DNA from: Ferrovibrio terrae
Lineage (GTDB): Bacteria > Pseudomonadota > Alphaproteobacteria > Ferrovibrionales > Ferrovibrionaceae
NCBI RefSeq assembly: GCF_943371255.1
Contig: NZ_CALRUC010000002.1
Coordinates: 27,086 to 91,085 of the forward strand
DNA length: 64,000 bases
Direction: 5' to 3'
In this document: piece after piece, positions 1,231 through 20,464 of the stretch
Layout of the letters: each line of letters opens with the position of its first letter
Numbering within the stretch: position 1 is the stretch's first letter
Translations under genes and position numbers: made by a program
The notes under the pieces: model-generated
Databases searched by the model: none
What the model saw: the letters and a program-made list of their open reading frames with translations, nothing else
Told to the model about the DNA's origin: nothing

Positions 1231-1256
1231 CGAACCGCTGACAGCAGGAGAGCAGC

Positions 1257-1622
1257 ATGACCAAGAACCGCCGCGCCGGCCGCATCTATCTCAAAGTGGA
1301 TGGCGTCCGCTACGATGCCAAGGGCAGTTTCTCGTACAACCTTGGCGCACCGAAGCGTACCGCAATCGTCGGCGCCGACAAGGTGCATGGCTTCTCGGAA
1401 GAGGTGCAGGTGCCTTACATCGAGGGCGAGATCACCGACAGCCCCGACTTCGATCTCCGCAAGTTCACGGAGATCGATGGCGCCACCATCACCCTTGAGC
1501 TGGGCAACGGCAAGGTGATCTCCCTGCGCGAGGCCTGGTACGCGGCCGAAGGCAAGGGCGAAACCAAGGAAGCGAATATCGAGGTTCGCTTTGAGGGCCT
1601 GGATGCCGAGGAGGTGCGCTGA
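1257..1622 (+). CDS. Phage tail tube protein (Mu gpM-like)
   Basis: 121 aa, RBS AGGAG; AGRIYLKVDG...G..R..IVG.D.VHGFSE....PYIEGEI pattern; position after sheath. Confidence 0.85.
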   Translation: MTKNRRAGRIYLKVDGVRYDAKGSFSYNLGAPKRTAIVGADKVHGFSEEVQVPYIEGEITDSPDFDLRKFTEIDGATITLELGNGKVISLREAWYAAEGKGETKEANIEVRFEGLDAEEVR

Positions 1623-1888
1623 TGACCAACAGCTACACCCTCAAGGTTCCCGTCAAGCACGGTTCCGATGAGATCACCGCGCTCACCTTCCGCAAGGCCA
1701 AGGCCCGCGACTTTCGCGAGCTGAAGGTTGGCGGCGACGGTGCGATCCCGATCGGCGACCTGCTGGACCTGGCCGCGCGCCTCAGCGACCAGGCGCCGTC
1801 CGTGATCGATGAGCTGGACCCCATCGACATGATGGAGGTGCTCAAGCGCACGGCGGGTTTTACCACGCCTGGCCAGAAGACTGGTTAG
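1622..1888 (+). CDS. Tail assembly chaperone (gp41/GpE-like)
   Basis: 88 aa between tube and TMP; LTFRKAKARD and IDELDPIDM motifs; slippery G GGT TTT near 3' end. Confidence 0.75.
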   Translation: MTNSYTLKVPVKHGSDEITALTFRKAKARDFRELKVGGDGAIPIGDLLDLAARLSDQAPSVIDELDPIDMMEVLKRTAGFTTPGQKTG

Positions 1889-2019
1889 ACGCATTCGACC
1901 TGCTCGCCGGCGAGCCATTCAACATCTCGCCGGCCGAGCTTTGGGAAATGGATGGCCCGGATCTCATGTTCTGGGTTTCGCGCGCCGCGAGCAGACTCAG
2001 CAAACAGAACAAGGGGTAA
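1855..2019 (+). other. Programmed -1 frameshift site and extension (GpE'-like) of the tail chaperone
   Basis: X XXY YYZ heptamer G GGT TTT at 1855-1861 in chaperone frame; -1 frame reads GFYHAWPEDWLDAFDLLAGEPFNISPAELWEMDGPDLMFWVSRAASRLSKQNKG* ending 2019, 3 nt before TMP start. Confidence 0.75.
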
Positions 2020-2022
2020 GCC

Positions 2023-3651
2023 GTGACCGGCTTCTCTCTCTCCATCATCATCAAGGCTGTTGACCAGGCGACCGCGCCGCTGCGCCGGATCGCTGACCAG
2101 CTGAACAATGCAACCGAACCGGTACGCCGGCTCGGTTCATCGTTGCGCGGCTTCAACGATGCCGCGGGCATCCCGCGGCTGACGGCTGGGATCGGCGGCG
2201 TCGCCGGCGCCATGCGTGGCGTTAGCGGTGAGGCGATGCTGCTGGCCGGCCGCATGTCGTCGCTCGCTTCCGGCTTCGGCCTGCTCGGTGCTGGCGGCAT
2301 CTATGCGTTCAAGACGCAGTTCCTTGACGTGTCAGCGCAGTTCGAGCGCTTCGAGACGATCCTGGGCACCGTCGAAGGATCGAGCGATAAGGCGAAGGGT
2401 GCCATGAGCTGGATCTCCGACTTCGCTACCAGCACGCCTTACGAGCTGAACCAGGTGACTGACGCTTATGTGAAGCTGCGCTCCTATGGCCTGAACCCGA
2501 CCAACGGACTGCTGCGGACTCTGGGCGATACCTCTGCTGCAATGGGCAAGCCGCTCATGCAGACGGTCGAAGCGATCGCCGATGCCGTCACCGGTGAAAA
2601 CGAGCGCCTCAAGGAATTCGGTATCCGGGCCAGCAAGGTGGGCAGCCAGATTGTCTACGAATACACGGACGCCGCCGGCAAGACCCAGCGCAAGGCAGTC
2701 GCGGCGAATAACCGCAACCTGATCGAATCGGTGCTCAAGTCGATCTGGAACGATAAGTATGCTGGCTCGATGGACAAGCTGTCGGGCACCTGGGATGGCA
2801 TGATGTCGAACCTTTCCGATCAGTGGACCAGGTTCTCGCGCATGCTGATGGATGGCGGCGCATTCGACTGGCTTAAAACGCAGCTTAAAGAGCTGCTCGA
2901 TACCATCGACAGCATGGCCGCCAGCGGCGAGCTGCAGCAGCTGGCCCAGGATCTGGGCGGCCAGCTGCGCGACGCACTGATTGCCGTGAAGGATGCCGGC
3001 ATCCAGTTCGCCGCCTGGGTCCGGGAGACCTGGCCTCAGATGCAGACCTTTGCCCAGGCTGTCGGCGGCTGGGGCAATGTGCTCAAGGGTGTGGCGTTCA
3101 TCCTGGCCGGCCCGTTCATCGTATCGCTGCTCACGCTCGGCCAGGCTTTCGTTTCCCTGGGTATGGCGATGTGGGCAACACCGATCGGCTGGGTGGTTGC
3201 CGGCATCGCAGCGATCGTCACGGCCGCCGTGCTGCTCTACACGCACTGGGACACCGTCACCGCAAAGCTGCAGCAGGCCTGGGCGATCATCAAGGAGGCC
3301 TTCTGGTCGCTTGTGGAGGGCATCGCCAAGGGCGTCGCGCAGATCGCCGACCTGTTGCCCAAGCAGCTGGGCGGCGAAATGGCGGTCAAGCTGAAGGCCT
3401 TTGCCGAGCTGGCAGCCAGCAACCGCACCGAAGCGCAATCGGCAATGCCTCAGTCGGCCACCGGCGCTGCCACGGTTCGGACCGGCGCTGGCGATGTGAT
3501 GCGCGCCAATGCCGGCGCCGGCGACAACAACAGCAAGACCGAAGTTCTGATCAAGGCCGAGAACCTGCCGCAGGGCATGAGCGTGCGCGTGGGCGAAACC
3601 ACCGCCGATCGTGTGAGCATGGATCTCGGCCGGGCGATGGCCGGCCCATGA
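2023..3651 (+). CDS. Tape measure protein
   Basis: 542 aa, Ala/Gly-rich helical; TMP-type N-terminus (LSIIIKAVDQATAPLR) and core (FATSTPYEL, GTWDGMMSNLSD); position after chaperone. Confidence 0.85.
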   Translation: MTGFSLSIIIKAVDQATAPLRRIADQLNNATEPVRRLGSSLRGFNDAAGIPRLTAGIGGVAGAMRGVSGEAMLLAGRMSSLASGFGLLGAGGIYAFKTQFLDVSAQFERFETILGTVEGSSDKAKGAMSWISDFATSTPYELNQVTDAYVKLRSYGLNPTNGLLRTLGDTSAAMGKPLMQTVEAIADAVTGENERLKEFGIRASKVGSQIVYEYTDAAGKTQRKAVAANNRNLIESVLKSIWNDKYAGSMDKLSGTWDGMMSNLSDQWTRFSRMLMDGGAFDWLKTQLKELLDTIDSMAASGELQQLAQDLGGQLRDALIAVKDAGIQFAAWVRETWPQMQTFAQAVGGWGNVLKGVAFILAGPFIVSLLTLGQAFVSLGMAMWATPIGWVVAGIAAIVTAAVLLYTHWDTVTAKLQQAWAIIKEAFWSLVEGIAKGVAQIADLLPKQLGGEMAVKLKAFAELAASNRTEAQSAMPQSATGAATVRTGAGDVMRANAGAGDNNSKTEVLIKAENLPQGMSVRVGETTADRVSMDLGRAMAGP

Positions 3652-4853
3652 CCGAAGTTCGCGACTATCGCCAGGCGTCATTCCGCGGCGTGCCATTTCA
3701 GGTGGCCGTTGCCGATGACGAATTCGGCCGCCGCGGCGAACACCATGAGTTCCCCGGCCGCGACAAAGGGTTCTTCGAGGATCTGGGCAAGAAGGATCCG
3801 CAGTTCGCGCTCGATGCCTACCTGGTCGGCGACGACTATGCCGATCAGCGCGACAAGCTTCTTGCCGCCTGTGATGAACAGGGCCTTGGCGAGCTGGTGC
3901 ATCCTTACTATGGCGTCAAGCAGGTTGCCTGCATCGGCGTCCGCACCCGACACGACAAGGCGAAGCGGCGGCTGGTTTCATTGTCGCTCACGTTCCTTGA
4001 AACCGGCGCCGCACCACAGGCCGTTGCCCAGCCGATGCGCGGCAGCCAGGTGTTTCGCGCGGCCGACAACGCCCAGGGCGTGGCGATCGAAGATTTCAGC
4101 AAGGCCTTCAATCTGTCCGGTCAGCCCGGTTTTACGGTGCAAGAGCTGACCGACGTTTTGAGCGGCGGCGCGGATCTGATGCAGAATATTTCTTCGCCAG
4201 TGCAGAGTGTGTCGAACCTTGGCAGCGGCATCGGCGGCCGCTCGGCCTTCTCGCGCGGTCTGTCGATGCTGCGCGGCACATCGCTGTATGAGCCGTTTTC
4301 TCTCGGCACCCAGCTGTTTTCCGCCTTCGGCTCGCTGAGTCAGATCGGCGGCTATGGCGCAGGAAGCTATCAGAGCAGCCGGTCGGTCTGGTCCTACGGA
4401 TCATCGGTTACGCCTGTGCCGCTCACCACCGAGACGCGGCGGATCCAGGCGTCTAACCAGTCCGCCCTGGTCAGCCTGTTTGAACGTGCTGCCATCATCG
4501 AGGCCGGCCGCTCGATCCCGACTTACGACTTTGAGAGCTATGACGAAGCCGTTGCAGTCCGCGATGAGTATTCGGAGCGCATCGATCGCGAGCTGGAGTC
4601 GACGCGATCTGATGACGTGTTCCGCACGCTCACCGATCTGCGCGCCGGCGTGACGGGTGACGTTCGTGAGCGCGCCACGGATCTCGCCCGTGTTTCAACC
4701 ATCACGCCGGCGATGACGTTACCCGCGCTAGTCGTGGCCTATGACAGCTTCGAGGACGTATCCAAGGCCGACAGTATCGCCAGGCGCAATAAGATCCGGC
4801 ATCCGGGCTTTGTGCCCGGCGGCCGCCCACTTGAGGTGCTGATCGATGGCTGA
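3648..4853 (+). CDS. DNA circulation/circularization protein (Mu gpN-like)
   Basis: ASFRGVPFQV...GRR...HEFPGRD...EDLG; G.LVHPYYG; C-terminal PALVVAY...RN.IRHPGFVP; ATGA overlap with TMP. Confidence 0.85.
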   Translation: MTEVRDYRQASFRGVPFQVAVADDEFGRRGEHHEFPGRDKGFFEDLGKKDPQFALDAYLVGDDYADQRDKLLAACDEQGLGELVHPYYGVKQVACIGVRTRHDKAKRRLVSLSLTFLETGAAPQAVAQPMRGSQVFRAADNAQGVAIEDFSKAFNLSGQPGFTVQELTDVLSGGADLMQNISSPVQSVSNLGSGIGGRSAFSRGLSMLRGTSLYEPFSLGTQLFSAFGSLSQIGGYGAGSYQSSRSVWSYGSSVTPVPLTTETRRIQASNQSALVSLFERAAIIEAGRSIPTYDFESYDEAVAVRDEYSERIDRELESTRSDDVFRTLTDLRAGVTGDVRERATDLARVSTITPAMTLPALVVAYDSFEDVSKADSIARRNKIRHPGFVPGGRPLEVLIDG

Positions 4854-5943
4854 TGCAGACATTGCCGAGCTGATCGTCGGCGGCAAGGCCTATTCAGGCT
4901 GGAAGGATGTGACCGGCATTCGCCAGATCGATGCCATCGCCGGCGGCTTCGAGCTGGAGCTGTCCGAGCGGTGGGACGGCCAGGCGGTGCGATGGCCGAT
5001 TGATCCGGGCGATCAATGTGAGCTGCGCCTGGCGGGCGAAACCGTAGTAGTGGGGAACGTCGACTCGGCCCAGCGCCAGATCGACAAGCAGAGTCACCGC
5101 GTCACCATCAAGGGCCGCGACAAGACCGGCGACCTGGTCGATTGCTCGGCAATCCACACGCCCGACGAGTTTTCCGGCCTTGACGCCCTGTCGCTTGCCA
5201 AGACGCTGGCGCAGCCCTTTGGTATTTCCGTTTCGGCCGATATCCCGGTTGGGGCTCCTTTCAATCCCTTCAAGCTGCAGCCGGGTGAGTCCTCGTTCGA
5301 GGCGATCGAGCGCGCCTGCCGTATGCGTGCATTGCTGCCGATGTCTGACGGCCGGGGCGGCATGGTTCTGACGCGCGCCGGCAGCGGCCGCGCTGCCTCT
5401 GCAATTGTCGAAGGTGGCAATTTGCTGAGTGGCTCGGCCGAGAATGACTGGTCGCAGCGTTACAGCAGCTACACGGTGAAGGCACAGTCAACCAGTGCGC
5501 TGGCAGAAGATCCCGACGACACAGCCGGCATTGAAGGTTCGTCCGGCGATCGCGGCGTGAACCGCCATCGGCCGCTGCTGATCGTCGCAGAAGGCATTGC
5601 CGACACGGCGGCGGCTCGTGAGCGTGCCCAATGGGAGGCCGGCGTGCGTGCTGGCAGGTCCGTGACAGTTACTACTCTGGTGCAGGGCTGGCGTCAGGCG
5701 GATGGCGCGCTGTGGCCGCTGAACAGCCTTTGCCCGGTGAAGATTCCCAGCCTCGATATCAACGACACGCTGCTGATTACGGCGCTGCGCTTCACCTTCG
5801 GCGCCCAGGGCAGCCGCACCGAGATCAGCATGACCAGGCCGGACGCCTTCCGCCTGATCCCGGAAATACCGAAGGGCAAGAAGAATACCGGCCTGCCCGA
5901 AGGCACCCAGGTGATCACGTCCGAGGGGCAGCTGAAACGATGA
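4846..5943 (+). CDS. Baseplate hub protein (Mu gp44/gpP-like)
   Basis: YSGWKDV, GRDKTGDLVDCSA, QPGESSFEAI, RA.WEA..RAGRS, GWRQ.DG.LW..N motifs. Confidence 0.85.
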   Translation: MADADIAELIVGGKAYSGWKDVTGIRQIDAIAGGFELELSERWDGQAVRWPIDPGDQCELRLAGETVVVGNVDSAQRQIDKQSHRVTIKGRDKTGDLVDCSAIHTPDEFSGLDALSLAKTLAQPFGISVSADIPVGAPFNPFKLQPGESSFEAIERACRMRALLPMSDGRGGMVLTRAGSGRAASAIVEGGNLLSGSAENDWSQRYSSYTVKAQSTSALAEDPDDTAGIEGSSGDRGVNRHRPLLIVAEGIADTAAARERAQWEAGVRAGRSVTVTTLVQGWRQADGALWPLNSLCPVKIPSLDINDTLLITALRFTFGAQGSRTEISMTRPDAFRLIPEIPKGKKNTGLPEGTQVITSEGQLKR

Positions 5944-6473
5944 GTAAACGCCTGTTCGATGCTGCCATGAGGCCGACTGTCAATCGCGTCAAGCTGGCGA
6001 TCGGCCGCGCCGTGCTCCGCCTAGTGTCCGATGCCGGCGTGCTGCAGCGGCTACAGATCGAGGGCCTGAAGGATGAGCTGTTCTGGGCCGACCGGATCCA
6101 GAATTACGGTTTCTATTCCAATCCGCCGCCTGGCGCGGATGTCGCGGTGGTGTTCCAGGGGGGCGACCGTGGCGCCGGCGTCGCGGTTGGTGTCGATCAT
6201 CGCGACTATCGGCCGAAGAACCTCAAGACCGGCGAAGCAATGATGGCCGACATGTTCGGCAAGTTCATCTACATGCAGGACGATGGCACGATTGTGATCA
6301 AGGCCACCAAGATCCGTCTCGAGGCGGCAATGGTCGAGGGCACCGGCGAGATCAAGGACCGCTGCGACAGCGACGGCAAGACGATGTCCGGTATGCGTGC
6401 AAGCCATAACACACATAAACACCCAGAGAACGGCGGCGCCGGGCCGACCGATGTTCCCACCGAACCGATGTAA
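5940..6473 (+). CDS. Baseplate spike protein (Mu gp45/gpV-like)
   Basis: QRLQIEGL.DE...IQNYGF.S.PP.GA; C-terminal HNTHKH metal-binding HxH tip. Confidence 0.85.
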   Translation: MSKRLFDAAMRPTVNRVKLAIGRAVLRLVSDAGVLQRLQIEGLKDELFWADRIQNYGFYSNPPPGADVAVVFQGGDRGAGVAVGVDHRDYRPKNLKTGEAMMADMFGKFIYMQDDGTIVIKATKIRLEAAMVEGTGEIKDRCDSDGKTMSGMRASHNTHKHPENGGAGPTDVPTEPM

Positions 6474-6477
6474 GACG

Positions 6478-6936
6478 ATGGATATCCGCGTCACCTTCGA
6501 TGATGTCACGCTCACCGGTGATCTGGCCGTGGTCGCGGGCCTGCTTGCGCTTGAGCCTGGTCCGAAGTCGTCCATCATCATTTCGCTGTTCAGTGATGCG
6601 CGTGCCGGCGCTGCCGATGAGCTGCCGGACGATGAAACCTCGCGCCGCGGTTATTGGGCCGATGCGCTCAGTGACGATCCCGAAGAAAGCACCGGCTCGC
6701 TGCTCTGGTTGTTGCAGCGTGAGAAGCAGACTGAGAAGACACGGCTTCGCGCGAAGGCATATGCCGAACGCAGCCTGCAATGGATGATCAGAGACGGGGT
6801 GGCGCGCGCCATCACGGTAGTAGCCGAATGGATCGGGCAAGGTCGCCTTGGCCTGGGGATCGCAGTGTCTCGCCCTGACGGGACAACGGAGCGGTATCGC
6901 TTCGAGCAGATCTGGCAAGCAGCCGAAGCAGAATAG
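6478..6936 (+). CDS. Baseplate protein (Mu gp46-like)
   Basis: IIISLFSDARA, RRGYWAD, GSLLWLL.REK, A...L.WM..DGVA motifs. Confidence 0.85.
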   Translation: MDIRVTFDDVTLTGDLAVVAGLLALEPGPKSSIIISLFSDARAGAADELPDDETSRRGYWADALSDDPEESTGSLLWLLQREKQTEKTRLRAKAYAERSLQWMIRDGVARAITVVAEWIGQGRLGLGIAVSRPDGTTERYRFEQIWQAAEAE

Positions 6937-6947
6937 GAAACCGTTCA

Positions 6948-8012
6948 ATGGCGTTTCAGCGTCCATCGCTAACCGATCTTGTCGCGCGGGTCCAGTCGGA
7001 TATCGATGTCCGACTGCCCGGCGCTGACAGCCGGTTGCGGCGTTCGGCGCTGACGGTGCTTGCCTATGTGATCGCCGGCACGGCGCACATGCTCTATGGC
7101 TTCATTGAATGGGTGGCGCGGCAGATCCTGCCCGATACGTCGGATCTCGATATTCTCGCCCGACATGCTAGCATCTGGTCTGTGCTGGCCCGCGCCGCCA
7201 CGTTCGCGACCGGCAATGTAACGCTTGCCGGAATCTCCGACACCGTGATCGCTGCCGGCACCAGGCTGTTGCGGAATGATGGCCTGATTTACCGCACCAC
7301 GGCCGAGGTGACGATCGAGGACGGCGCGGCAACCGCTCCAGTGGAAGCGGAATCGGCAGGCCTGCTGGGCAACGCTGCCGCCGGTGTGGTGCTCAATCTG
7401 ATCACTCCGATCGCCGGCGTGCAGTCTGCGGCCGCAGTGGCAGTCGGCGGCCTGACCGGCGGCGCTGATGACGAAAGCGCGCAGAGCCTTCTGGCGCGTC
7501 TGTTGCAGCGGATCCAGCTGCCACCGCATGGCGGCGCCGATTTTGATTATCCCTACTGGGCCAAGAAGGTCGCTGGCGTGACGCGGGTATGGGTTGCGCC
7601 GCGTGCAATGGGCCTTGGCACGGTGACTGTCCGCTTCATGATGGATGATGCTTATGACGATGGCATTCCGCAGCCTGCTGATGTCACCGCGGTGCAGGCT
7701 TATATCGACCAGCTGAGCATTCGGCCGGTTACGTGTGAAGTGTTCGTCGTGGCGCCGATCGCCGTGCCGCTCAATTTCCAGATCTCCGGCCTGAACCCGT
7801 CAACGACAGCTGTACGAGAGGCAATTAAAGCCTCGTTGAAAGACCTGATCCGACGTGAAGCGGTGCCCGGTGGCACGATCCTGTATTCGCATATCCGCGA
7901 GGCAATCTCCGTTGCCGCCGGCGAGTACAACCACGGCCTGGTTGCACCGGTTGCCGATGTCGCCCACGGCACCGGGCATATCTGCACCCTCGGCGTTGTG
8001 AGTTTCGTCTGA
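6948..8012 (+). CDS. Baseplate J-like wedge protein (Mu gp47-like)
   Basis: MAFQRPSL, GGADDES, PPHGGA..DY..WA..V.GV.R.WV motifs. Confidence 0.9.
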   Translation: MAFQRPSLTDLVARVQSDIDVRLPGADSRLRRSALTVLAYVIAGTAHMLYGFIEWVARQILPDTSDLDILARHASIWSVLARAATFATGNVTLAGISDTVIAAGTRLLRNDGLIYRTTAEVTIEDGAATAPVEAESAGLLGNAAAGVVLNLITPIAGVQSAAAVAVGGLTGGADDESAQSLLARLLQRIQLPPHGGADFDYPYWAKKVAGVTRVWVAPRAMGLGTVTVRFMMDDAYDDGIPQPADVTAVQAYIDQLSIRPVTCEVFVVAPIAVPLNFQISGLNPSTTAVREAIKASLKDLIRREAVPGGTILYSHIREAISVAAGEYNHGLVAPVADVAHGTGHICTLGVVSFV

Positions 8013-8599
8013 TGCGCTCGACCCCGGATCAATACCTTCGCCAGCAACAGGCCCTACTTCCGCCAGGCGCCGCCTGGTCGCGCTCACCTGGCACGATCAT
8101 CACGGCGATCCTTGAGGTGTTCGCCGAGACCTGGGCACGCCTGCATAACCGTGCCGCAGATCTGCTGGAAGAGGCGGATCCGCGCACCACGCTTGAGCTG
8201 TTGCCCGACTGGGAGCGCGTCACTGGTCTGCCCGATCCATGCTTTGGTACGGAACAGACGGTGCAGCAGCGTCGGGCCGCCCTGGTCGCGCAACTGACGG
8301 CCACCGGTGGTCAAGACCGGCAATACTTCATCGATCTGGCCGCGCGCCTTGGCTACGAGATCACCATTCAGGAGTTCCGCCCGTTTCGTGCCGGCAGCCT
8401 GGCCGGCGATCCATGCTGCGATGAACCGTGGTGGTTCGTATGGTACGTGAAAGCACCGCTGGACACTTACCGCGAGTTTTGCGCCGGCATCTCTTGTGCA
8501 GGCGAGCCGATCCGCACCTGGGGCAATGAACCACTCGAATGCACGATCCGGCGTTATGCGCCGGCTCATACTCTCGTCAAGTTCAGTTACGGAGAATAA
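8012..8599 (+). CDS. Baseplate wedge protein (Mu gp48/YmfQ/DUF2313-like)
   Basis: LLPPGAAW, EADPRTT.ELLPDWER..GLPD.C, LEC.IRRYAPAHT motifs. Confidence 0.9.
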   Translation: MRSTPDQYLRQQQALLPPGAAWSRSPGTIITAILEVFAETWARLHNRAADLLEEADPRTTLELLPDWERVTGLPDPCFGTEQTVQQRRAALVAQLTATGGQDRQYFIDLAARLGYEITIQEFRPFRAGSLAGDPCCDEPWWFVWYVKAPLDTYREFCAGISCAGEPIRTWGNEPLECTIRRYAPAHTLVKFSYGE

Positions 8600-8602
8600 G
8601 CC

Positions 8603-9214
8603 ATGTTTTTCCCCGATCGCTTGGCCGCCGAAACGCCGCCCGCCGTACCTGCTGTCGGTACGCCCGGCTTCTTCACACACGGCAATGCCGGGCTTGATGT
8701 CCCTGCCACTCCAGTAGAGAGCTGGTGGCTGAATATGGTGACGCAGGAGTTGGCAGCGGTCGTCGCGGCCGCTGGCCTCACACGGGACAAGACCAATAAT
8801 GCCCAGGTGGTCCAGGCGATCAATGCGCTGATTACCGCCGGCGTGCCTTCGCTAGCGAATGTCGCTTTCCTGAACCAGGTTCAGTCCTTCTCCAAAGCAC
8901 AGGGCAGCACGGCAAAGGTGCTGACTGCCGCGTCGCCCGTGGCGATCGACTTCGCGGACTCAAACCTTTTCACCTTCGCACCGGCGACCAGCTTCACCCT
9001 GGGCAATCCTGGCAGTGTCGTGAACGGGCGCCCGTTCATGATCATTGTGACGCAGCCTGTCGGCGGTAACTGTGCGTGGGGCTTCAATGCCAACTGGGTG
9101 TTCGAGGACAATGAATTGCCCTCACCACTGCTCACCGCGAACGCGCTCAACATCTTCATCGGCACCGGCCTGCCTGCGAGCAAGGCAACCGGCCGCATGA
9201 TCAGCATCGTCTAA
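8603..9214 (+). CDS. Short tail-fibre/adaptor protein with Mu gp49-like N-terminal anchor
   Basis: PGFFT.GN.....PAT.V...WLN.V..EL..VV.AAGL...K....Q anchor motif; only 203 aa. Confidence 0.7.
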   Translation: MFFPDRLAAETPPAVPAVGTPGFFTHGNAGLDVPATPVESWWLNMVTQELAAVVAAAGLTRDKTNNAQVVQAINALITAGVPSLANVAFLNQVQSFSKAQGSTAKVLTAASPVAIDFADSNLFTFAPATSFTLGNPGSVVNGRPFMIIVTQPVGGNCAWGFNANWVFEDNELPSPLLTANALNIFIGTGLPASKATGRMISIV

Positions 9215-12256: not shown

Positions 12257-12438
12257 TCCCGCAGCGGCCCATCCGCGTCGGTGAAACCGTCAGGATCACC
12301 GACGCGATCTATGGCGAAGTGAAAGAGGTGGTTGCCGATTATTTCGGAACAATCGACCGCCTGATCATCGAAGTGTCTGATACGTGTTTTATCAATCTGT
12401 TTATCGAAGATCTGCCGACGCAGAGGCTTGATTCGTGA
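12253..12438 (+). CDS. Small hypothetical protein (61 aa, KOW/SH3-like start IRVGETVRIT)
   Basis: TTG start overlapping previous stop (TTGA); lower GC; no function assignable. Confidence 0.4.
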   Translation: MIPQRPIRVGETVRITDAIYGEVKEVVADYFGTIDRLIIEVSDTCFINLFIEDLPTQRLDS

Positions 12439-12476
12439 TCGACCATTTTCATCAAGACATTTCCTCAGCTGGCGTC

Positions 12477-12582
12477 GGCCGGCGGGGGTCGGGCTGCGCT
12501 AACAGCCCGAACCGCGAGGTGAGATCTCGCACGACCAAGACCGGCCTATCTGGGCCATCCCGCCACCCCTGCAGGGGCGGGA
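12477..12582 (+). promoter_or_regulatory. Structured leader upstream of com (multiple hairpins)
   Basis: TCGGGCTG-cgctaa-CAGCCCGA (12489-12510), GCGAG-N7-CTCGC (12514-12530), TCCCG..CCCC-tgca-GGGGCGGGA (12558-12582), closing GGCCGG/CCGGCC (12477-82/12541-46). Confidence 0.45.
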
Positions 12583-12603
12583 ATGTCATAGGGATCTCAA
12601 CAG

Positions 12604-12810
12604 GTGGAGTCTATTCGCTGCGGCCGCTGCGAGCGGTTGCTTTTCAAATCGACACCAGGCGCTGTCACAGGACGAATCGAAGTGAAGTGTTCTCGGTGCG
12701 GCAGCATCAATCAGATCAGGGCCGCGAGCCCATCACCGGAACGCCAGCGAGCGTCATTCATAGAGGAAACTATGATGACCAACGCAAACGACTCGGGGAG
12801 CGTAAAGTGA
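12604..12810 (+). CDS. com: Mu Com-family zinc-finger regulator
   Basis: IRCGRCERLLFK...IEVKCSRCGSINQ (CxxC...CxxC); position at Mu com locus. Confidence 0.85.
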   Translation: MESIRCGRCERLLFKSTPGAVTGRIEVKCSRCGSINQIRAASPSPERQRASFIEETMMTNANDSGSVK

Positions 12811-13718
12811 ATGTGGCTTTATCTCCCTTCAACGGCCTTGCGCTCTGTGCCGGCGGCGGCGGCCTCGAACTTGGCATCCATATTGCCGAACCCGAATATC
12901 GAACTGTTTGTTACGTTGAGCGGGAAGCCTACGCTGCAGCCGCTCTCGTGGCACGGATGGAAGACAAGGCGCTATCTGACGCGCCTGTCTGGAGTGACGT
13001 TACCAGCTTCAACGGCCGTCCGTGGCGCGGCGTCGTGGATATCCTCTCTGCGGGTTACCCGTGCCAGCCTTTCAGCTCGGCCGGCAAGAAACTCGGCACG
13101 GCGGATCCGCGCCACCTCTGGCCGCATGTCGCCAGGATCGTCCGTGAGATTGAGCCGGAATGGCTCTTCCTCGAAAATGTCCCGCACCATCTCCGCGTCG
13201 GATTTCCCGTGGTCGCAAACGACCTACGAGAAATGGGCTACCGGTTTGTGGCGGGCCTGTTCTCTGCGCGAGAAGCGGGTGCTGCACATTTCCGGCGGCG
13301 ACTCTTCGTACTGGCCCACGCCGACCGCGAGCAATGCCGGCGATTGGCCTCAAGTGCGTGTGGGCGCCACGATGCAGTTTTGCGATCCGCCGAACGGAAA
13401 CCAATTCGCGCTGCCAATGGCCGCGCGGATCTGGTGTCTGTGGTGGGATATGATCGTCGCAACCGTCGGCGTGCGCGCTATCGCGCAACGTCCGGCGAGC
13501 TGCCTGTCTATGCCCCTGGTCCAGGTGCTCTTGAAGCCTGGGCGCACATCATCGGAAGCGATCCCAGTCTTAAACCCGCGCTTTGGCGAGATGCTGATGG
13601 GCTGGCCGACTGGGTGGACCGCAACCGAGTCGTCGGTAACGGAGTTTCATCGGTGGCTGCGGCTTTCGCGTTCTGTACTCTCAAAGCTGAACTCTTTGCG
13701 GATGGATCTGCATCGTGA
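12807..13718 (+). CDS. DNA (cytosine-5) methyltransferase, alpha chain (lacks motif IX)
   Basis: GTG start overlapping com stop (GTGA), RBS GGGGAG; motifs I LCAGGGG, II VERE, IV GYPCQPFS, VI ENV, VIII HFRRRLFVLA, X GNGV. Confidence 0.88.
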   Translation: MNVALSPFNGLALCAGGGGLELGIHIAEPEYRTVCYVEREAYAAAALVARMEDKALSDAPVWSDVTSFNGRPWRGVVDILSAGYPCQPFSSAGKKLGTADPRHLWPHVARIVREIEPEWLFLENVPHHLRVGFPVVANDLREMGYRFVAGLFSAREAGAAHFRRRLFVLAHADREQCRRLASSACGRHDAVLRSAERKPIRAANGRADLVSVVGYDRRNRRRARYRATSGELPVYAPGPGALEAWAHIIGSDPSLKPALWRDADGLADWVDRNRVVGNGVSSVAAAFAFCTLKAELFADGSAS

Positions 13719-13773
13719 GGGTGAAAACCGCGATGTACCCGGCAATAATGCGGGCATCGAATCGGGGGAATGA
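12811..13773 (+). CDS. Overlapping +1-frame ORF: putative beta chain of the C5-methyltransferase (supplies motif IX)
   Basis: 320 codons open; WPTPTA (from 13312) and LNPRFGEMLMGWPTGWT (13570-13620) resemble TRD/motif IX segments; starts right after com stop and ends right before next ATG. Confidence 0.7.
   Translation: MWLYLPSTALRSVPAAAASNLASILPNPNIELFVTLSGKPTLQPLSWHGWKTRRYLTRLSGVTLPASTAVRGAASWISSLRVTRASLSARPARNSARRIRATSGRMSPGSSVRLSRNGSSSKMSRTISASDFPWSQTTYEKWATGLWRACSLREKRVLHISGGDSSYWPTPTASNAGDWPQVRVGATMQFCDPPNGNQFALPMAARIWCLWWDMIVATVGVRAIAQRPASCLSMPLVQVLLKPGRTSSEAIPVLNPRFGEMLMGWPTGWTATESSVTEFHRWLRLSRSVLSKLNSLRMDLHREGENRDVPGNNAGIESGE
13721..13749 (+). promoter_or_regulatory. Possible sigma70-type promoter for the GNAT-like gene
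   Basis: GTGAAA-N17-AATAAT upstream of RBS GGGGGA and ATG 13774. Confidence 0.3.
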
Positions 13774-14475
13774 ATGAACATCGCGCGCCAGATCGATCGG
13801 CACGCCGCGGCGATTGTTGCGGCGCTTGCCGAAGGCGGGTTCAAGGCTCATTTGAACGATGACCCGAAAGCCTATGCCGACTATGTCGGCACGGTGCCGG
13901 GTTACAGCCTGACCTCTCCGCTCGATCTGGCGTTTGTCGATGTGCGCGAGAAATTCATCTGGCTTCGCGTCACAGATAGCGCCGGCAATCTCGTCGCCAT
14001 CGAGGCTGGCCGTTATCTCAAAGCACCGACGCTCACCGGCGGCCTGAATCGCCTGCTGAAATCCCGGCGCTTCTTCGGTGAGCATCGCCCGACATTGCCT
14101 GTCGTCACGACGCTGCCGGCAATCAACCTCAGCGGCGACCTGGGCTACATGGGTGGCGGCTTCGTTGCCAAGGAGCATCGGGACCGCGGCGTCATGAGCC
14201 TCACGGCGCAGCTGACGATGCTACATCTCATGCGGCTGTTTCCCATCGATCATCTGTTCGGCCTGGTCAAAGCGCAGCACGTTGCGCGATCGCTGCGGCT
14301 GCAGGGTTATGGGTTCACTTCTGCGACTGCAGTGCGTTGGGCTTACTGGGCCGATTCGGCAGCGCCGGAGACCCTCTTCATGGTGCATGTTGACCGTGCG
14401 GCACTCATTGATCGTGTGGATGAACAGCCACATTACGCGCTCAAGAAATCCACGATCGTAGAAGGTAAAGTCTAG
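13774..14475 (+). CDS. Orphan GNAT/acyl-CoA N-acyltransferase-fold protein
   Basis: 233 aa; GGGFVAKEHRDRGVMSL resembles GNAT motif A (V.xxxR..G); FIWLRVTD.AG..VA..AGR and FGLV strands. Confidence 0.5.
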   Translation: MNIARQIDRHAAAIVAALAEGGFKAHLNDDPKAYADYVGTVPGYSLTSPLDLAFVDVREKFIWLRVTDSAGNLVAIEAGRYLKAPTLTGGLNRLLKSRRFFGEHRPTLPVVTTLPAINLSGDLGYMGGGFVAKEHRDRGVMSLTAQLTMLHLMRLFPIDHLFGLVKAQHVARSLRLQGYGFTSATAVRWAYWADSAAPETLFMVHVDRAALIDRVDEQPHYALKKSTIVEGKV

Positions 14476-14510: not shown

Positions 14511-14538
14511 TTGACAGAGAACCACCACCGAGGATAAT
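14511..14538 (+). promoter_or_regulatory. Near-consensus sigma70 promoter for the HTH/PAS gene
   Basis: TTGACA (14511-16)-N16-GATAAT (14533-38), then RBS-like GAGAGGA and ATG 14569. Confidence 0.6.
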
Positions 14539-15467: not shown

Positions 15468-16007
15468 TCACTGATCGATAAATTCGTCGGCCACGGGCAG
15501 CCGGTTGGGTGTGATCAGAATCCGGCCCAAACCCTTCCGCCTGCACTGCTGGCAGCGCGCTGCCCGCTCGGCGGCGATCAGGGTCATATTGCCCTTGCCG
15601 GCAGCGACCAGGGCGGGCAGGTCAAGCTCGGCCCGGTGACGGCACAGATTGCCGTGCGGCGGCAGGGGCGCGAGGCAGTGAACCGAGGCCTTATCGCCCC
15701 GGCTGTGGTGATAGCCCAGCGTGGGCGCCCTGCGGTCCTTCCGGTAGAAGGTTTCCTCGGGCGTTTCCGGGCGCCTGGTGATGACAAAATCGAGGCCCTT
15801 GGCGTTGCAGGCAGGGCAACGCAGCAGAGGGCCGATTTCCTCCAGCGGCGTCTTGTCGCCGTGCAGGACAGCCAGGCGCAGCGGCTGCAGCTCTCTCTGG
15901 TGCCCGAAACGGCACCGGCCGAAGAGTTTGACGCCGCCGCGGCTGACGCCGATCGGGGTGGTAAGGTCGGGCGGTGGAGAGCGTCGAACGGGCTGCATTT
16001 GTTCCAT
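15468..16007 (-). CDS. Tandem zinc-ribbon protein (two C..H...C..C units)
   Basis: RCRFGH...LRCPACNAKG and HC...CRH...RCQQCRRKG internal duplication; probable start ATG 16007. Confidence 0.55.
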   Translation of the reverse strand: MEQMQPVRRSPPPDLTTPIGVSRGGVKLFGRCRFGHQRELQPLRLAVLHGDKTPLEEIGPLLRCPACNAKGLDFVITRRPETPEETFYRKDRRAPTLGYHHSRGDKASVHCLAPLPPHGNLCRHRAELDLPALVAAGKGNMTLIAAERAARCQQCRRKGLGRILITPNRLPVADEFIDQ

Positions 16008-16082
16008 TGATTCCCGGCTTGAAGCCGGGGCGCAATAGAGCAACCGTTAAAGGCCGTTTGAGGCTTGTGGGTAAATCTGAGG

Positions 16083-16158
16083 AAATGTCTCGGAAATGGG
16101 CGATAAATGGAGTCCGAAATCAAATGTCGCGGAATCCGAAATTTTGCGGCGCGCTACA
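16083..16158. repeat. Mu-like right end with repeated transposase-binding-like sites
   Basis: AAATGTC(T/G)CGGAA at 16083 and 16122; TCCGAAAT at 16113 and 16135 (22-bp spacing); terminal CA at 16157-16158. Confidence 0.7.
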
Positions 16159-17044
16159 TTCAGCCCCTCAACCGCAGCCCGGCCATGATTGGGAAGCGCG
16201 TCTGCCCGCGCCCGACCTGCTGCGCCAGGCCTATGCGCGGGATGGCTATGCGATCATCCGTGGACTGTTTTCCCCGGCCGAGGTGGCCGCCATGGCCGGG
16301 GCCTTCGACCGCCTGCAGGCCTCCGGCCTGGCGCTCGGTCGCAGTTTCCGCCATGGCAATCTGCTGTTCCGGCTGGGCGACGACCCGCATCTGGGCCGCA
16401 TCCTGCGCATGGTGCAGTGGCCGTCCTGGCGCGATGCCCTGCTGGACCGCGTGCGGCTCGATCCCCGTTTCGTGGCCGTGCTGAAACCCCTGATCGGCGA
16501 CAACCTCAAGCAGATCATCAACCAGATGCACTGGAAGCCGCCGGGCGCGGCGAAAGTGGAATTCGCCTATCACCAGGACAGCCGTTTCCGCCGGCCGGCC
16601 GAGGCCTTCCGCGATCTGGCCGGCTCTTATGTGCAGACCGGCATCGCCATCGACGCGCATACAAGGGCCAGCGGCGCCATGAAGGTGATCCCGGGCAGCC
16701 ATCTGCTCGGCAACCTCGATCTCGGCGGCGACGGTCCGATCCTGCAGCAGACGATGCAGGATGCGGCCCTGCAGGCGGTCGGCCTCGATCCGGCCGCGGC
16801 AGTCGATCTCGAACTGGCGCCCGGCGATCTGGCGCTGTGGTCGCCCTTCCTGGTGCATGGTTCGGGGATCAACAGCACGGCTGCCGACCGCCGGCTCTAT
16901 ATCAACGGTTATGTCACAGCTGAAAACTGTGATCGCGGCGAATGGGCTTTTCGCGCCGGCCAGCCGCAACGGCTCGGTGTCGAACCCGTTCTGGTGCATT
17001 ACGAAGCCCTGCACGAAAAGCCCGAGCCGCATTTCGTTGAGTGA
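16124..17044 (+). CDS. Phytanoyl-CoA dioxygenase (PhyH) family Fe/2OG enzyme; 5' end apparently interrupted by prophage
   Basis: AYARDGY, HWKPPG...YHQD, G.MKVIPGSH, PGD...W...LVHGS...R motifs; the only nearby in-frame ATG (16124) lies inside the phage end. Confidence 0.75.
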   Translation: MSRNPKFCGALHSAPQPQPGHDWEARLPAPDLLRQAYARDGYAIIRGLFSPAEVAAMAGAFDRLQASGLALGRSFRHGNLLFRLGDDPHLGRILRMVQWPSWRDALLDRVRLDPRFVAVLKPLIGDNLKQIINQMHWKPPGAAKVEFAYHQDSRFRRPAEAFRDLAGSYVQTGIAIDAHTRASGAMKVIPGSHLLGNLDLGGDGPILQQTMQDAALQAVGLDPAAAVDLELAPGDLALWSPFLVHGSGINSTAADRRLYINGYVTAENCDRGEWAFRAGQPQRLGVEPVLVHYEALHEKPEPHFVE

Positions 17045-17095
17045 TGCCGGCCATCAGTGGTTGATCGCCCGCGCCGAGTTTGTCACGCTCACCCC

Positions 17096-18571
17096 ATGAC
17101 ACATCCCAGCGGCAGCTTTTCCTTCGATCTCGTCATTTTCGGCGCCACTGGCGACCTGTCGCTGCGCAAGCTGGTGCCGGCGCTGTATCACCGCGATGTC
17201 GCCGGCCAGCTCAATGACGATGTCCGGCTGTTTGCCGTCGCCCGCGGCGAAATGCCGGACGAAGAATTCCGCAGCCTCGCACGCGGCGCGCTGGATCGTC
17301 ATCTCGATGCCAAGGATTTCAGCGAGGCCGCCGTCGAGCGTTTCGTGTCCCGTTTCCGCTATCTCAGCCTCGATGCGGAAACCCCTGCCGACTATGCCGC
17401 GCTGGCAAAAGCTCTAAATGGCGGCACGGAGCGCGTGCTGGTGTTCTATCTCGCCATGGCGCCGCGCTTCTTCGGCCCGATCTGTACCCAGCTGGCGGCA
17501 GCCGGCCTGAACCGGCCGCAGGCCCGCGTCGTGCTGGAAAAGCCGATCGGCCATGATCTGGCCTCGGCGCGCGCGGTCAACGGCGCGGTGGCGGCGGCCT
17601 TCTCCGAGGACCGCGTCTTCCGCATCGATCACTATCTGGGCAAGGAAACCGTGCAGAACCTGATGGCGCTGCGCTTTGCCAATGCGCTGTTCGAGCCGGT
17701 CTGGCATCGCGGCGTGATCGACCATGTGCAGGTGACGGTGGCCGAGAAGATCGGCGTCGAGGGCCGCGCCGGCTATTACGACCATGCCGGCGCGCTGCGC
17801 GACATGGTGCAGAATCATCTGCTGCAGTTGCTCTGCCTGGTGGCGATGGAGCCGCCGAATGCCTTTGCCGCCGATGCGGTGCGTGATGAAAAACTGAAGG
17901 TGCTGGAAGCGCTGCGCCCGCTCACCGATGGCACCATCGGTGAAAAGACCGTGCGCGGCCAGTATGCGGCCGGTGCTGTCGATGGCGGCGCCGTGCCCGG
18001 CTATGGCGAGGAAATCGGGCGCGACGACAGCACCACGGAAACCTTTGTCGTGGTCAAGGCCGAGGTCGAGACCTGGCGCTGGGCCGGCGTGCCATTCTAT
18101 CTGCGCACCGGCAAGCGGCTGCCGGTGCGGCGCTCGGAGATCGTCGTGCAGTTCCGCCCGGTGCCGCATCTGATCTTCCCTGCGGCGGCGCGCGACGTGG
18201 TACCCAATCGTCTCGTCATCCGCCTGCAGCCCGACGAGGGCATCTCGCTGCATATGATGAGCAAGGTGCCGGGGCCGGGCGGCATGCGGCTGCGCACCGC
18301 GCCGCTCAATCTCAGCTTCGCCGAAACCTTCCAGGGCCGGCAGCCCGATGCCTATGAACGCCTGTTGATGGATGTGGTGCGCGGCAACCCGATGCTGTTC
18401 ATGCGCAGCGACGAGGTCGATGCGGCCTGGCGCTGGATCGAACCGATCCTGGCCGGCTGGCAGTCGCAAAGCGATCGGCCCAAGCCCTATACGGCCGGCA
18501 GCTGGGGGCCATCGGCGGCGATTGGCCTGATCGAACGCGACGGCCGCACCTGGCACGAAGACATGCGCTGA
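17096..18571 (+). CDS. zwf: Glucose-6-phosphate 1-dehydrogenase
   Basis: FGATGDL, EKP.G.DL.SA, RIDHYLGKETVQN, WAGVPFYLRTGKRL. Confidence 0.97.
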   Translation: MTHPSGSFSFDLVIFGATGDLSLRKLVPALYHRDVAGQLNDDVRLFAVARGEMPDEEFRSLARGALDRHLDAKDFSEAAVERFVSRFRYLSLDAETPADYAALAKALNGGTERVLVFYLAMAPRFFGPICTQLAAAGLNRPQARVVLEKPIGHDLASARAVNGAVAAAFSEDRVFRIDHYLGKETVQNLMALRFANALFEPVWHRGVIDHVQVTVAEKIGVEGRAGYYDHAGALRDMVQNHLLQLLCLVAMEPPNAFAADAVRDEKLKVLEALRPLTDGTIGEKTVRGQYAAGAVDGGAVPGYGEEIGRDDSTTETFVVVKAEVETWRWAGVPFYLRTGKRLPVRRSEIVVQFRPVPHLIFPAAARDVVPNRLVIRLQPDEGISLHMMSKVPGPGGMRLRTAPLNLSFAETFQGRQPDAYERLLMDVVRGNPMLFMRSDEVDAAWRWIEPILAGWQSQSDRPKPYTAGSWGPSAAIGLIERDGRTWHEDMR

Positions 18572-19881
18572 TGGCCGCTCTGCTGGACCGCCTGCGCGAC
18601 CGCCTCGGCCCGCATCTGAGCGCGGCCGATGATCCGGCCGGCCGCGTGCGCCTGCAGACCCTGGTGCTGTTGCGCTGGATCGCCATCATCGGCCAGCTGC
18701 TGGCCATCCTGTTTGTGCATTTCGGGCTGAACTTCAAACTGCCGCTGCTGCCGGCGCTGGCGGTGGTCGGCATTTCCGCACTGCTCAACATCGTCCTCTT
18801 CATCATCTACCCGACCGCCAAGCGACTGAGCGAGAAGGGGGCAGCGGGTTATCTTGCCTTCGACCAGATCCAGCTCTGCATCCTGCTGTTCCTCACCGGC
18901 GGCATCGACAATCCCTTCACCGTGCTGATCCTGGTGCCGGTCACGGTCTCGGCCACCATTCTCACCCTGCGTTCCACGGTGGTGCTGGGGCTGCTGGCCT
19001 TCGTGCTCACCACGCTGATGACGATCTACCACCTGCCGCTGCCCTGGGGCGACCATGCCGAAGTGCTGCAGCCGCCGCTGCTGCAATGGGGCAATCTCAT
19101 CGCCCTGGTGCTGGGCACGCTGTTCATCGCCGCTTATGCCTGGCAGGTGGCGGAGGAAGCCCGGCGCATGTCGGATGCGCTGGCAGCCACGCAGATGGCA
19201 CTGGCGCGCGAGCAGCAGGTCTCGGCGCTGGGCGGTCTGGCCGCCGCGGCGGCCCATGAACTGGGTTCGCCGCTGGGCACCATTGCCGTTGTGGTGAAGG
19301 AAATCGGACGTGAACTGGCGGCTGACAATCCGCTGGCGGAAGATATCGCGCTGCTGCAGAGCCAGGTCGAACGCTGCCGCGACATTCTGGCGCGTCTGTC
19401 GCGCCGTCCCTCGGCCACCTCCGACCCGGAAGCCTTCTCTGATCTCGGTATTGCCAACATGATGGAGGTGGTGGCAATGCCCTGGCGCCGCGAGGGCATT
19501 GCCTTTGCCGTGCAGCTGATCGGCACTGGCACGCCGCCGGTTTTGCCGCGCCGGCCCGAAATCCTGCATGGACTGGGCAACCTGCTGCAAAACGCCATGG
19601 AGTTCGCCCGCGCCAGTGTCGATATCGAGGTGGACTGGGACGACAAAACCATCCGTCTGCGTATTCTTGACGATGGCCCCGGCCTGAACGTGGATATCCT
19701 CTCGGCCTTGGGCGAGCCCTATGTGACCAGCCGGCCTGACAGCGGCGGCATGGGCCTGGGCGTCTTCATCGCCATGAACCTGCTGCGCCGCAGCGGAGCA
19801 TCGGTCGCCTTTGCCAACCGGCCGGGTGGCAGCGGCACCCAGGTGGCGGTCAGCTGGCCACGCGACCTGACGGCAAAATAG
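18571..19881 (+). CDS. regB: RegB/PrrB/ActS redox sensor histidine kinase
   Basis: RLQTLVLLRW.AI.GQ, GGIDNPF quinone-binding motif, AAAAHELGSPL H-box, GMGLG. Confidence 0.92.
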   Translation: MAALLDRLRDRLGPHLSAADDPAGRVRLQTLVLLRWIAIIGQLLAILFVHFGLNFKLPLLPALAVVGISALLNIVLFIIYPTAKRLSEKGAAGYLAFDQIQLCILLFLTGGIDNPFTVLILVPVTVSATILTLRSTVVLGLLAFVLTTLMTIYHLPLPWGDHAEVLQPPLLQWGNLIALVLGTLFIAAYAWQVAEEARRMSDALAATQMALAREQQVSALGGLAAAAAHELGSPLGTIAVVVKEIGRELAADNPLAEDIALLQSQVERCRDILARLSRRPSATSDPEAFSDLGIANMMEVVAMPWRREGIAFAVQLIGTGTPPVLPRRPEILHGLGNLLQNAMEFARASVDIEVDWDDKTIRLRILDDGPGLNVDILSALGEPYVTSRPDSGGMGLGVFIAMNLLRRSGASVAFANRPGGSGTQVAVSWPRDLTAK

Positions 19882-19936
19882 ACCGGAAACCGTGCGGGGG
19901 TTGCGCAGTGCCCCCGCTGCGGTACATTCTGCCGCC

Positions 19937-20464
19937 ATGACCGATATGTCCCTGCTGATCGTCGATGACGATGAACCGCTGCGCATGCGTCTGGCGCGTG
20001 CGATGGAAAAGCGTGGTTATGTGGTGCAGACCGCTGAGTCTGTCGCAATTGGCATCCAGATGGCGCGGGCCAAGCCACCGGCCTATGCGGTCGTCGACCT
20101 CAAATTGGGCGATGGCAATGGCCTGGATGTTGTCACCGCGATCCGCCAGGTGCGCCAGGATGCGCGCGTGGTGATGCTCACCGGCTATGGCAATATCGCC
20201 ACCGCGGTTGCTGCCGTGAAGGCGGGGGCGGCCGACTATCTGCCCAAACCGGCCGATGCCGATGATGTCGATCGCGCGCTGCGCGTCGGCAATGCGGCAC
20301 ATCCGGCACCGCCGGACGAGCCGATGTCGGCCGAGCGCGTGCGCTGGGAACATATCCAGCGCGTCTTCGAACTTTGCGACCGCAATGTGTCGGAGACGGC
20401 GCGCCGGCTGAAGATGCATCGCCGCACTCTGCAGCGCATCCTCGCCAAGCGTTCGCCGCAGTAG
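19937..20464 (+). CDS. regA: RegA/PrrA/ActR response regulator
   Basis: LTGYGNIATAV.AVK.GA.DYL.KPADADD; RWEHIQRVFELCDRNVSETARRLKMHRRTLQRILAKRSP. Confidence 0.95.
   Translation: MTDMSLLIVDDDEPLRMRLARAMEKRGYVVQTAESVAIGIQMARAKPPAYAVVDLKLGDGNGLDVVTAIRQVRQDARVVMLTGYGNIATAVAAVKAGAADYLPKPADADDVDRALRVGNAAHPAPPDEPMSAERVRWEHIQRVFELCDRNVSETARRLKMHRRTLQRILAKRSPQ

Follow-up and report, generated by a model that had tools for sequence, protein, structure and literature searches.

A divergent GNAT-fold protein encoded between a DNA methyltransferase and a PAS-like regulator near the right end of a Mu-like Ferrovibrio terrae prophage

What is a small GNAT-like protein doing directly behind a DNA methyltransferase near the end of a prophage? 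The question is raised by a 233-aa open reading frame in the window, that is, the whole stretch of 64,000 nucleotides of the Ferrovibrio terrae contig analysed in this work. A sequence-only reading had described it as an orphan GNAT-fold enzyme in the position of the phage Mu gene mom, and had proposed that it is either a DNA- or nucleotide-modifying enzyme or an N-acyl amide synthase. The reading we prefer, tentatively and at somewhat short of even confidence, is that of an acyltransferase, expressed late together with the methyltransferase, which would set the state of a PAS-like partner protein encoded just downstream. The features of the locus are collected in the table.

Table. Features of the GNAT locus in the window, and related genes elsewhere in the same genome (contig given before the colon)
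Feature	Position	Strand	Basis
com, Mu-type Com zinc-ribbon translational activator, first gene of the putative right-end operon	12604-12810	+	PF10122 (Zn_ribbon_Com)
C5 cytosine DNA methyltransferase, GTG start	12807-13718	+	PF00145, phrog_363, PADLOC cytosine methylase models
Promoter-like GTGAAA-N17-AATAAT 5' of the GNAT gene, probably a chance match	13721-13749	+	9/12 consensus matches
Gene for a divergent protein of predicted GNAT fold, putative acyltransferase, 233 aa	13774-14475	+	AF2 model, Foldseek, homologues
Motif-A-like segment GGFVAKEHRDRGVMSL, residues 127-142	14152-14199	+	Family profile, AF2 model
Strong sigma-70-type promoter of ORF235, TTGACA-16-GATAAT	14511-14538	+	11/12 consensus matches
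ORF235, XRE-type HTH fused to a PAS_5-like putative sensor domain, 235 aa	14569-15276	+	AF2, hhalign
Small ORF after ORF235, 53 aa	15304-15465	+	No family match
Cys-rich ORF, 191 aa, convergent on the module	15468-16043	-	tblastn
GNAT paralogues in the same genome	C82:18695-19402; C1:52140-52829; C89:5862-6503		

The open reading frame is a genuine gene. An in-frame TGA directly 5' of it (13771-13773) closes the frame, so that its ATG at 13774 is the earliest usable start, and a Shine-Dalgarno-like GGGGGA is found 4 nt upstream. The GC content at the three codon positions (GC1/GC2/GC3 of 0.67/0.44/0.70) follows the same coding pattern as that of ORF235 and of the host gene zwf. Homologues of 42-60% identity align from residue 1, with 56 invariant positions. 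The 233-aa frame is thereby confirmed with its exact coordinates. The promoter which had been suggested for it fared differently: the sequence is present as described, but as a functional element it does not rise above chance, since a promoter scan found two sites as good as this one where 1.4 were expected from shuffled sequences. The methyltransferase and GNAT genes are 55 nt apart in the window and -4, 1, 5, 23 and 52 nt apart in homologous loci, which in most of these is too short for a promoter, and the element is therefore not conserved. We rejected it as a working promoter and consider it probably a chance match.

The gene lies near the right end of a prophage which is, by its gene content, Mu-like. 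A contractile tail of Mu type is encoded at positions 1-9200 of the window, with genes for sheath, tube, tape measure, a gpN/gpP-type hub and a gp45-48-type baseplate; the tail-fibre genes come next, and a Mu transposase C-terminal domain is found on the same contig about 20 kb 5' of the window start (C2:6772-6960). A second match to this domain (C16:44269-44445) indicates a second Mu-like element. Downstream of the tail fibres is com, whose product matches the PF10122 model with 48.7 bits (E 5.3e-13, cut-off 22.9). The end of com and the beginning of the C5 methyltransferase gene (PF00145 E 2e-29, phrog_363 E 1e-51), which starts with GTG, overlap by 4 nt. In phage Mu it is mom that com overlaps, while B3, FluMu and Pnm1 carry com and a methyltransferase instead of mom (PMC3299994). 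As the methyltransferase follows com directly, it is this gene, and not the GNAT gene, which is syntenic with mom; the "Mom position" assigned earlier to the GNAT gene is thus occupied, and the GNAT gene is an additional one farther downstream. From their arrangement, com, the methyltransferase and the GNAT gene appear to constitute one com-led operon with the GNAT gene third. This operon resembles those of B3, FluMu and Pnm1 in the overlap of com with the methyltransferase start and in its location at the prophage right end; it differs in that the GNAT gene comes next, and after it an HTH/PAS gene with a promoter of its own, neither of which is mentioned in PMC3299994.

Two further observations concern this region. 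The GC pattern in the frame of the C5 methyltransferase is unusual, GC1 (0.71) being higher than GC3 (0.60), and a 320-aa ORF (12811-13773) is open in the +1 frame across nearly the whole gene. The ORF 12435-13718 has 427 aa, of which phrog_363 covers residues 119-416 and so nearly the full methyltransferase frame; the overlapping 320-aa ORF may therefore be a shadow. The second observation regards the host junction: the related prophage of locus L006, whose GNAT protein is 53% identical to that of the window, abuts the same host genes in a related bacterium (L006 3651-6446 compared to window 15974-20464), with identities of 74% for PhyH, 78% for a sensor kinase and 91% for a response regulator; zwf, between PhyH and the sensor kinase, is extra in the window. 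Mu-type phages that transpose at random would not be expected to share a junction, and the finding suggests either an old inherited insertion or a site preference.

The GNAT fold itself, which had been inferred from the letters only, is clearly supported by structure prediction, and a predicted fold other than GNAT, named beforehand as an outcome that would speak against the sequence-only reading, did not result. An AlphaFold2 (AF2) model built from seven sequences reached a pLDDT of 77 and a pTM of 0.81, and Foldseek returned 99 PDB matches at E≤1e-3, of which the best 50 are all GNATs with probability 1.00. Best placed are Naa60, the dopamine and serotonin N-acetyltransferases and PA4866, and RimL-like proteins are also among the best 50; the E values of the best matches range from 4e-6 to 1e-4, with target-normalised TM scores of 0.5-0.65 and identities below 16%. 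FeeM (2g0b) has rank 25. The viral structure library BFVD also returns GNATs, including a phage AHL synthase at rank 17 and Mom at rank 31 (E 6e-3). The modelled order of secondary structure fits the GNAT core (beta1-alpha1-alpha2-beta2-beta3-beta4-alpha3-beta5-alpha4-beta6-beta7), to which are added an N-terminal helix (residues 3-20) and, between beta3 and beta4, an insertion of 35 residues bearing a conserved GGL motif.

Motif A of the GNATs, Q/R-x-x-G-x-G/A, lies on beta4-alpha3 and forms the loop that holds the CoA pyrophosphate. The segment singled out by the sequence-only reading as resembling it, GGFVAKEHRDRGVMSL, is well placed, since it covers the end of beta4 and the start of alpha3 in the model, and a profile of 28 family members aligns it with motif A of the solved GNATs 2ozh and Naa10. 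It comprises G127 at the beta4 bulge followed by R136-x-x-G139-x-M141-S142, which in the window reads R136-D-R-G139-V-M141. Among the 28 members G127 is invariant, R136 nearly so, and the motif G is common. Distant and chromosomal relatives carry the form R-x-x-G-x-[A/S], and the phage clade R-x-x-G-x-M-S. As the final residue of the motif is a Met in the phage clade, CoA binding by the window protein is not certain. The usual Tyr of alpha4 is apparently not conserved in the family, as judged by eye from the alignment. Dependence on an acyl-CoA would be the most likely case. With the acetyl-CoA N-acetyltransferases Naa60, arylalkylamine/dopamine N-acetyltransferase and PA4866, its best structural matches, the window protein shares the R-x-x-G of its motif-A-like segment on beta4-alpha3; it is unlike them in its additional N-terminal helix, in the GGL-bearing insertion and in matching no Pfam GNAT model.

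Sequence models place the protein outside all families searched. It matches no Pfam family even at E≤1, including the models of the GNAT clan, and no NCBIfam, PHROG or PADLOC model (searches at E≤1 or 0.1), and phmmer against PDB sequences gave nothing meaningful. Acetyltransf_1 is matched, below threshold, by 9 of the 28 relatives (best E 2.7e-4), and the FeeM-type models (PF21926/PF13444) weakly, by two relatives at E 0.052 and by one at E 0.15. The window protein has no match to PF21926, nor does it match Autoind_synth (PF00765), which is also not among the 13 families reached by the 28 relatives.

"Orphan" is nevertheless too strong a term, since a rare family exists. Its close clade counts seven proteins in a set of 5.8 billion, and an exhaustive HMMER scan of 1.84 billion representatives gave 27 clusters at E≤1e-3. 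Searches by tblastn found no homologues in 50,697 deposited phage genomes and 72,556 plasmids, and in 400 other alphaproteobacterial genomes no member of the phage clade was detected, only distant relatives in nine of them. The relatives are uncharacterised alphaproteobacterial proteins, in agreement with the sequence-only reading. As far as the libraries and literature searched show, the sequences would thus define a rare, alphaproteobacterial and undescribed family.

The genome of the window carries three paralogues (loci L013, L014 and L015). L013 sits among transporter genes, L014 in the early region of a second prophage, and L015 between an MCP gene and hslVU, adjoining an HTH_3 gene. In the search output, one TGA falls within the match on contig C82. 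The copy on C1, in the second prophage, is near genes for RecT, Gp157, DUF5131 and another C5 methyltransferase. Locus L019 belongs to an unrelated prophage and has two very divergent GNAT copies in tandem (5171-5923 and 6001-6696) in its early region; genes for MT-A70 and C5 methyltransferases are found at a distance of 4-5 kb.

Is the protein then a Mom? Like Mom of phage Mu (PF25680; 8bv8) it has a GNAT fold and about 230 aa; in both cases the gene is part of an operon which begins with com and marks the right end of a Mu-type prophage, and is probably expressed late. Unlike mom, its gene does not directly follow com, the overlapping gene there being the C5 methyltransferase. A conserved PAS-like partner and relatives on chromosomes, as found for the window protein, have not been reported for Mom. 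Membership of the Mom family was rejected on three grounds. The PF25680 model, which scores 253 bits with Mu Mom itself, does not match the window protein at E≤1, and comparison of the family profile with Mom gave an hhalign probability of 0.2% (BLASTP E 1.9), in line with the earlier remark that no Mom-specific motifs were seen; neither comparison yielded a reliable alignment on which the catalytic residues of Mom could be placed. The third ground is structural. Mom moves glycine from Gly-tRNA(Gly) onto adenine N6 and for this needs an HTH-like insertion (residues ~175-209, DNA cleft) together with R111, S124, D149 and R151 (PMC13219725). In the window protein this insertion is missing from the model, a short beta6-beta7 hairpin (beta6 183-191, beta7 199-207, with a 7-residue loop) being in its place, and the only large insertion is that between beta3 and beta4.

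A modifier analogous to Mom, which late in infection would acylate or aminoacylate phage DNA or a nucleotide and so help the methyltransferase against restriction, is a separate matter. The substrates of Mom were not predictable from its structure (PMC13219725), so that a protein outside the Mom family may still do a Mom-like job. [quoted passage not shown] What speaks against it, besides the missing PF25680 match, the hhalign result and the lack of the insertion essential to Mom, is that 8bv8, although present in the PDB library searched, lies outside the best 50 of the 99 fold matches, and that Mom ranks low also in BFVD. We consider such a modifier rather unlikely, with two further points, one on each side, given by the gene neighbourhood.

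The first of these is the coupling to methyltransferases. A trio of genes for a DNA methyltransferase, the GNAT protein and an XRE-HTH/PAS-like protein, in this order, is found at a prophage end in seven independent loci: the window, L001 (the same element as L002, L008 and L030), L003/L004, L005, L006, L007 and L031. The tail modules of these prophages vary: some are of Mu type, a lambda-J-like fibre is encoded in L005, and a GP38-type protein in L003. Three methyltransferase families, unrelated to one another, are represented. Five loci (L003, L005, L006, L007 and L031) have a D12 Dam-like enzyme; those of the first four are mutually 63-82% identical, and the L031 enzyme shares 60-62% identity with those of L005 and L007. 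The two com-associated enzymes are the C5 methyltransferase of the window and, in L001, an unrelated N6_N4 methyltransferase preceded by a homologous com (7041-7220). In a maximum-likelihood tree a branch with 100/100 support sets the trio GNATs apart, and those of the two com-type loci are sisters. Taken together, the tree and the three families indicate that the methyltransferase was exchanged at least twice, with the GNAT gene staying directly behind it. This tight coupling, kept in 7/7 loci through the exchanges among D12, C5 and N6_N4 enzymes, argues for the Mom-like modifier. A purely regulatory role does not account for it, which makes it the main fact not covered by the reading we prefer, and a function related to DNA or restriction would fit it at least as well.

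The third gene of the trio is equally constant: a homologue of ORF235 follows the GNAT gene in 7/7 independent prophage loci. The AF2 model of ORF235 (pLDDT 83) has an N-terminal HTH, which matches C-protein/XRE HTH folds, and a C-terminal PAS-like alpha/beta domain. The latter aligns with the profile of the PAS_5-like partners described below (hhalign probability 69%, E 4e-5, 118 columns), a link of moderate strength, and PF07310 (PAS_5) itself does not match ORF235. It thus resembles the single-domain PAS_5 proteins of alphaproteobacteria in this domain, and differs from them in being fused to an XRE HTH and in falling below the PF07310 cut-off. The gaps between the GNAT and partner genes are 50-93 nt long and contain the only conserved promoter of the module, with TTGAC and the -10 region kept in 6/6 aligned loci, whose hosts include a Rhodocyclaceae MAG. 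Homology of the ORF235 HTH to the 160-aa HTH_3 neighbours of chromosomal GNAT copies was considered and rejected (hhalign probability 1.2%).

Beyond ORF235 the order of genes is also partly preserved. ORFs similar to the 53-aa ORF, in position and size only, are found at the equivalent place in L001, L005 and L007. The Cys-rich 191-aa ORF matches no Pfam family above cut-off and apparently consists of two repeats of about 80 aa, which looks like a tandem duplication; single-repeat homologues (tblastn, 40-42% identity) occupy the same place in L001, L003 and L031.

A PAS_5-like gene is also found next to the distant relatives of the GNAT gene. Those with about 20-28% identity, located on chromosomes and in the second prophage, nearly always adjoin a PAS_5 or PAS_5-like gene (L014, L015, L017, L018, L022, L023, L024/L025, L026 and L027/L028), often in convergent orientation. 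Two of these are paralogues in the window's own genome, near which the partner profile matches with E 1e-6 (L015) and E 2.5e-4 (L014). The same profile search detected no PAS_5-like partner in L013, L019 and L029. PAS_5 genes count only 0-23 per genome of 4-6 Mb in five other genomes of the class, and are expanded to 50 matches above cut-off in the 4.4-Mb genome of the window, often in tandem clusters (for example on C31, C161 and C93). By a rough estimate, chance would place a PAS_5 gene beside a GNAT relative in about 1% of loci. Judged from these neighbourhoods, the PAS_5-like partner is the older association of the GNAT family. Literature searches on PAS_5/PF07310/DUF1457 and on GNAT-PAS gene pairs gave nothing relevant, and no published function of PAS_5 was found.

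The chromosomal relatives provide the second point on the Mom-like modifier, in this case against it, as they are found in ordinary neighbourhoods without methyltransferases and paired with PAS_5-like genes. The presence of a PAS-like partner both in phages and in these methyltransferase-free contexts is the strongest of the new findings. It suggests that the enzyme works with the sensor, and makes DNA modification less likely than a small-molecule or regulatory role.

The acyltransferase reading which we prefer can be put as a sequence of steps. There is no conserved promoter before the GNAT gene, and the enzyme would therefore probably be made late, together with the anti-restriction methyltransferase. 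ORF235, transcribed from its own strong conserved promoter, would already be present when the late operon fires. The GNAT-fold enzyme would then acylate either a small molecule bound by the PAS-like domain of ORF235 or ORF235 itself, and the acylation would switch this DNA-binding regulator upon firing of the late operon. We infer the donor, the acceptor, the direction from enzyme to sensor and the timing from the arrangement of the genes and the predicted structures. The two roles proposed by the sequence-only reading, DNA or nucleotide modification and N-acyl amide synthesis, may both still apply.

The same pair of genes could also serve communication between phages, the GNAT protein making a diffusible signal of N-acyl amide or lactone type during lytic growth and the HTH-PAS protein, expressed constitutively in lysogens, being its receptor. 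FeeM and the LuxI-type AHL synthases have a GNAT-derived fold and are of similar size, the GNAT gene is paired with that of a regulator of ligand-binding type, and the fold of the window protein resembles both FeeM and the phage AHL synthase at the ranks given above. Weak matches of two relatives to FeeM Pfam models point in this direction as well. So does ORF235, which joins a domain of ligand-binding type to an HTH under its own conserved promoter. Convergent synthase and receptor genes occur in some LuxI/LuxR-type pairs, and enzyme and partner are convergent at many of the chromosomal loci. On the other side, both fold and profile comparison place the protein closest to acetyl-CoA N-acetyltransferases and not to LuxI or FeeM, to which the fold matches are weaker; the window protein matches neither PF21926 nor PF00765, no family member matches Autoind_synth, and nothing points to export or diffusion. 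This signalling role appears unlikely to us, though not to be neglected.

A toxin-antitoxin or abortive infection system, in which the GNAT protein would poison translation like TacT or AtaT and ORF235 would neutralise the toxin and repress its gene, was also weighed. Accessory genes at a prophage end would suit such a system. The reverse gene order, with a self-promoted HTH gene downstream, resembles that of higBA and mqsRA, and the XRE-HTH gene is placed in this way. The protein is nevertheless unlike the TacT/AtaT-type toxins, having no canonical Acetyltransf_1 match, no PADLOC match and a methyltransferase gene upstream, and it has 233 aa with the 35-residue beta3-beta4 insertion and no RHH/DUF1778 partner. 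The GNAT gene is co-transcribed, as far as gene order tells, with the methyltransferase and not with the putative antitoxin, chromosomal pairs are often convergent and hence not co-transcribed, and the L013 paralogue of the same genome has no detectable partner. Convergent pairs and the partner-less paralogue led us to reject toxin-antitoxin as the main reading, and we regard it as very improbable.

Part of what is found here was known already, namely the GNAT fold and the arrangement of com with a methyltransferase. The family, its beta3-beta4 insertion, the PAS_5-like partner and the trio of methyltransferase, GNAT and HTH/PAS genes are undescribed as far as the libraries and the literature searched show, and the gene founds a family without a model in Pfam, NCBIfam, PHROGs or PADLOC. 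GNATs at the accessory ends of phages have twice given unexpected chemistry, most recently with Mom and its glycyl-tRNA-dependent DNA modification. Should the present one modify DNA alongside methylation, the GNAT fold would have been recruited for anti-restriction a second time, in a lineage independent of Mom, which would be equally novel. With a probability that we put as low, though not negligible, the locus encodes a phage enzyme-receptor system, in which an acylated small molecule made late is sensed by a constitutive HTH/PAS regulator in the same cell or in neighbouring lysogens; if the communication reading is true, it would be a small-molecule counterpart of the phage communication or anti-repressor switches. 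If, as we prefer, the enzyme sets the state of the PAS sensor, the pair would provide the first functional handle on the PAS_5 family and a new regulatory switch tied to a phage late operon.
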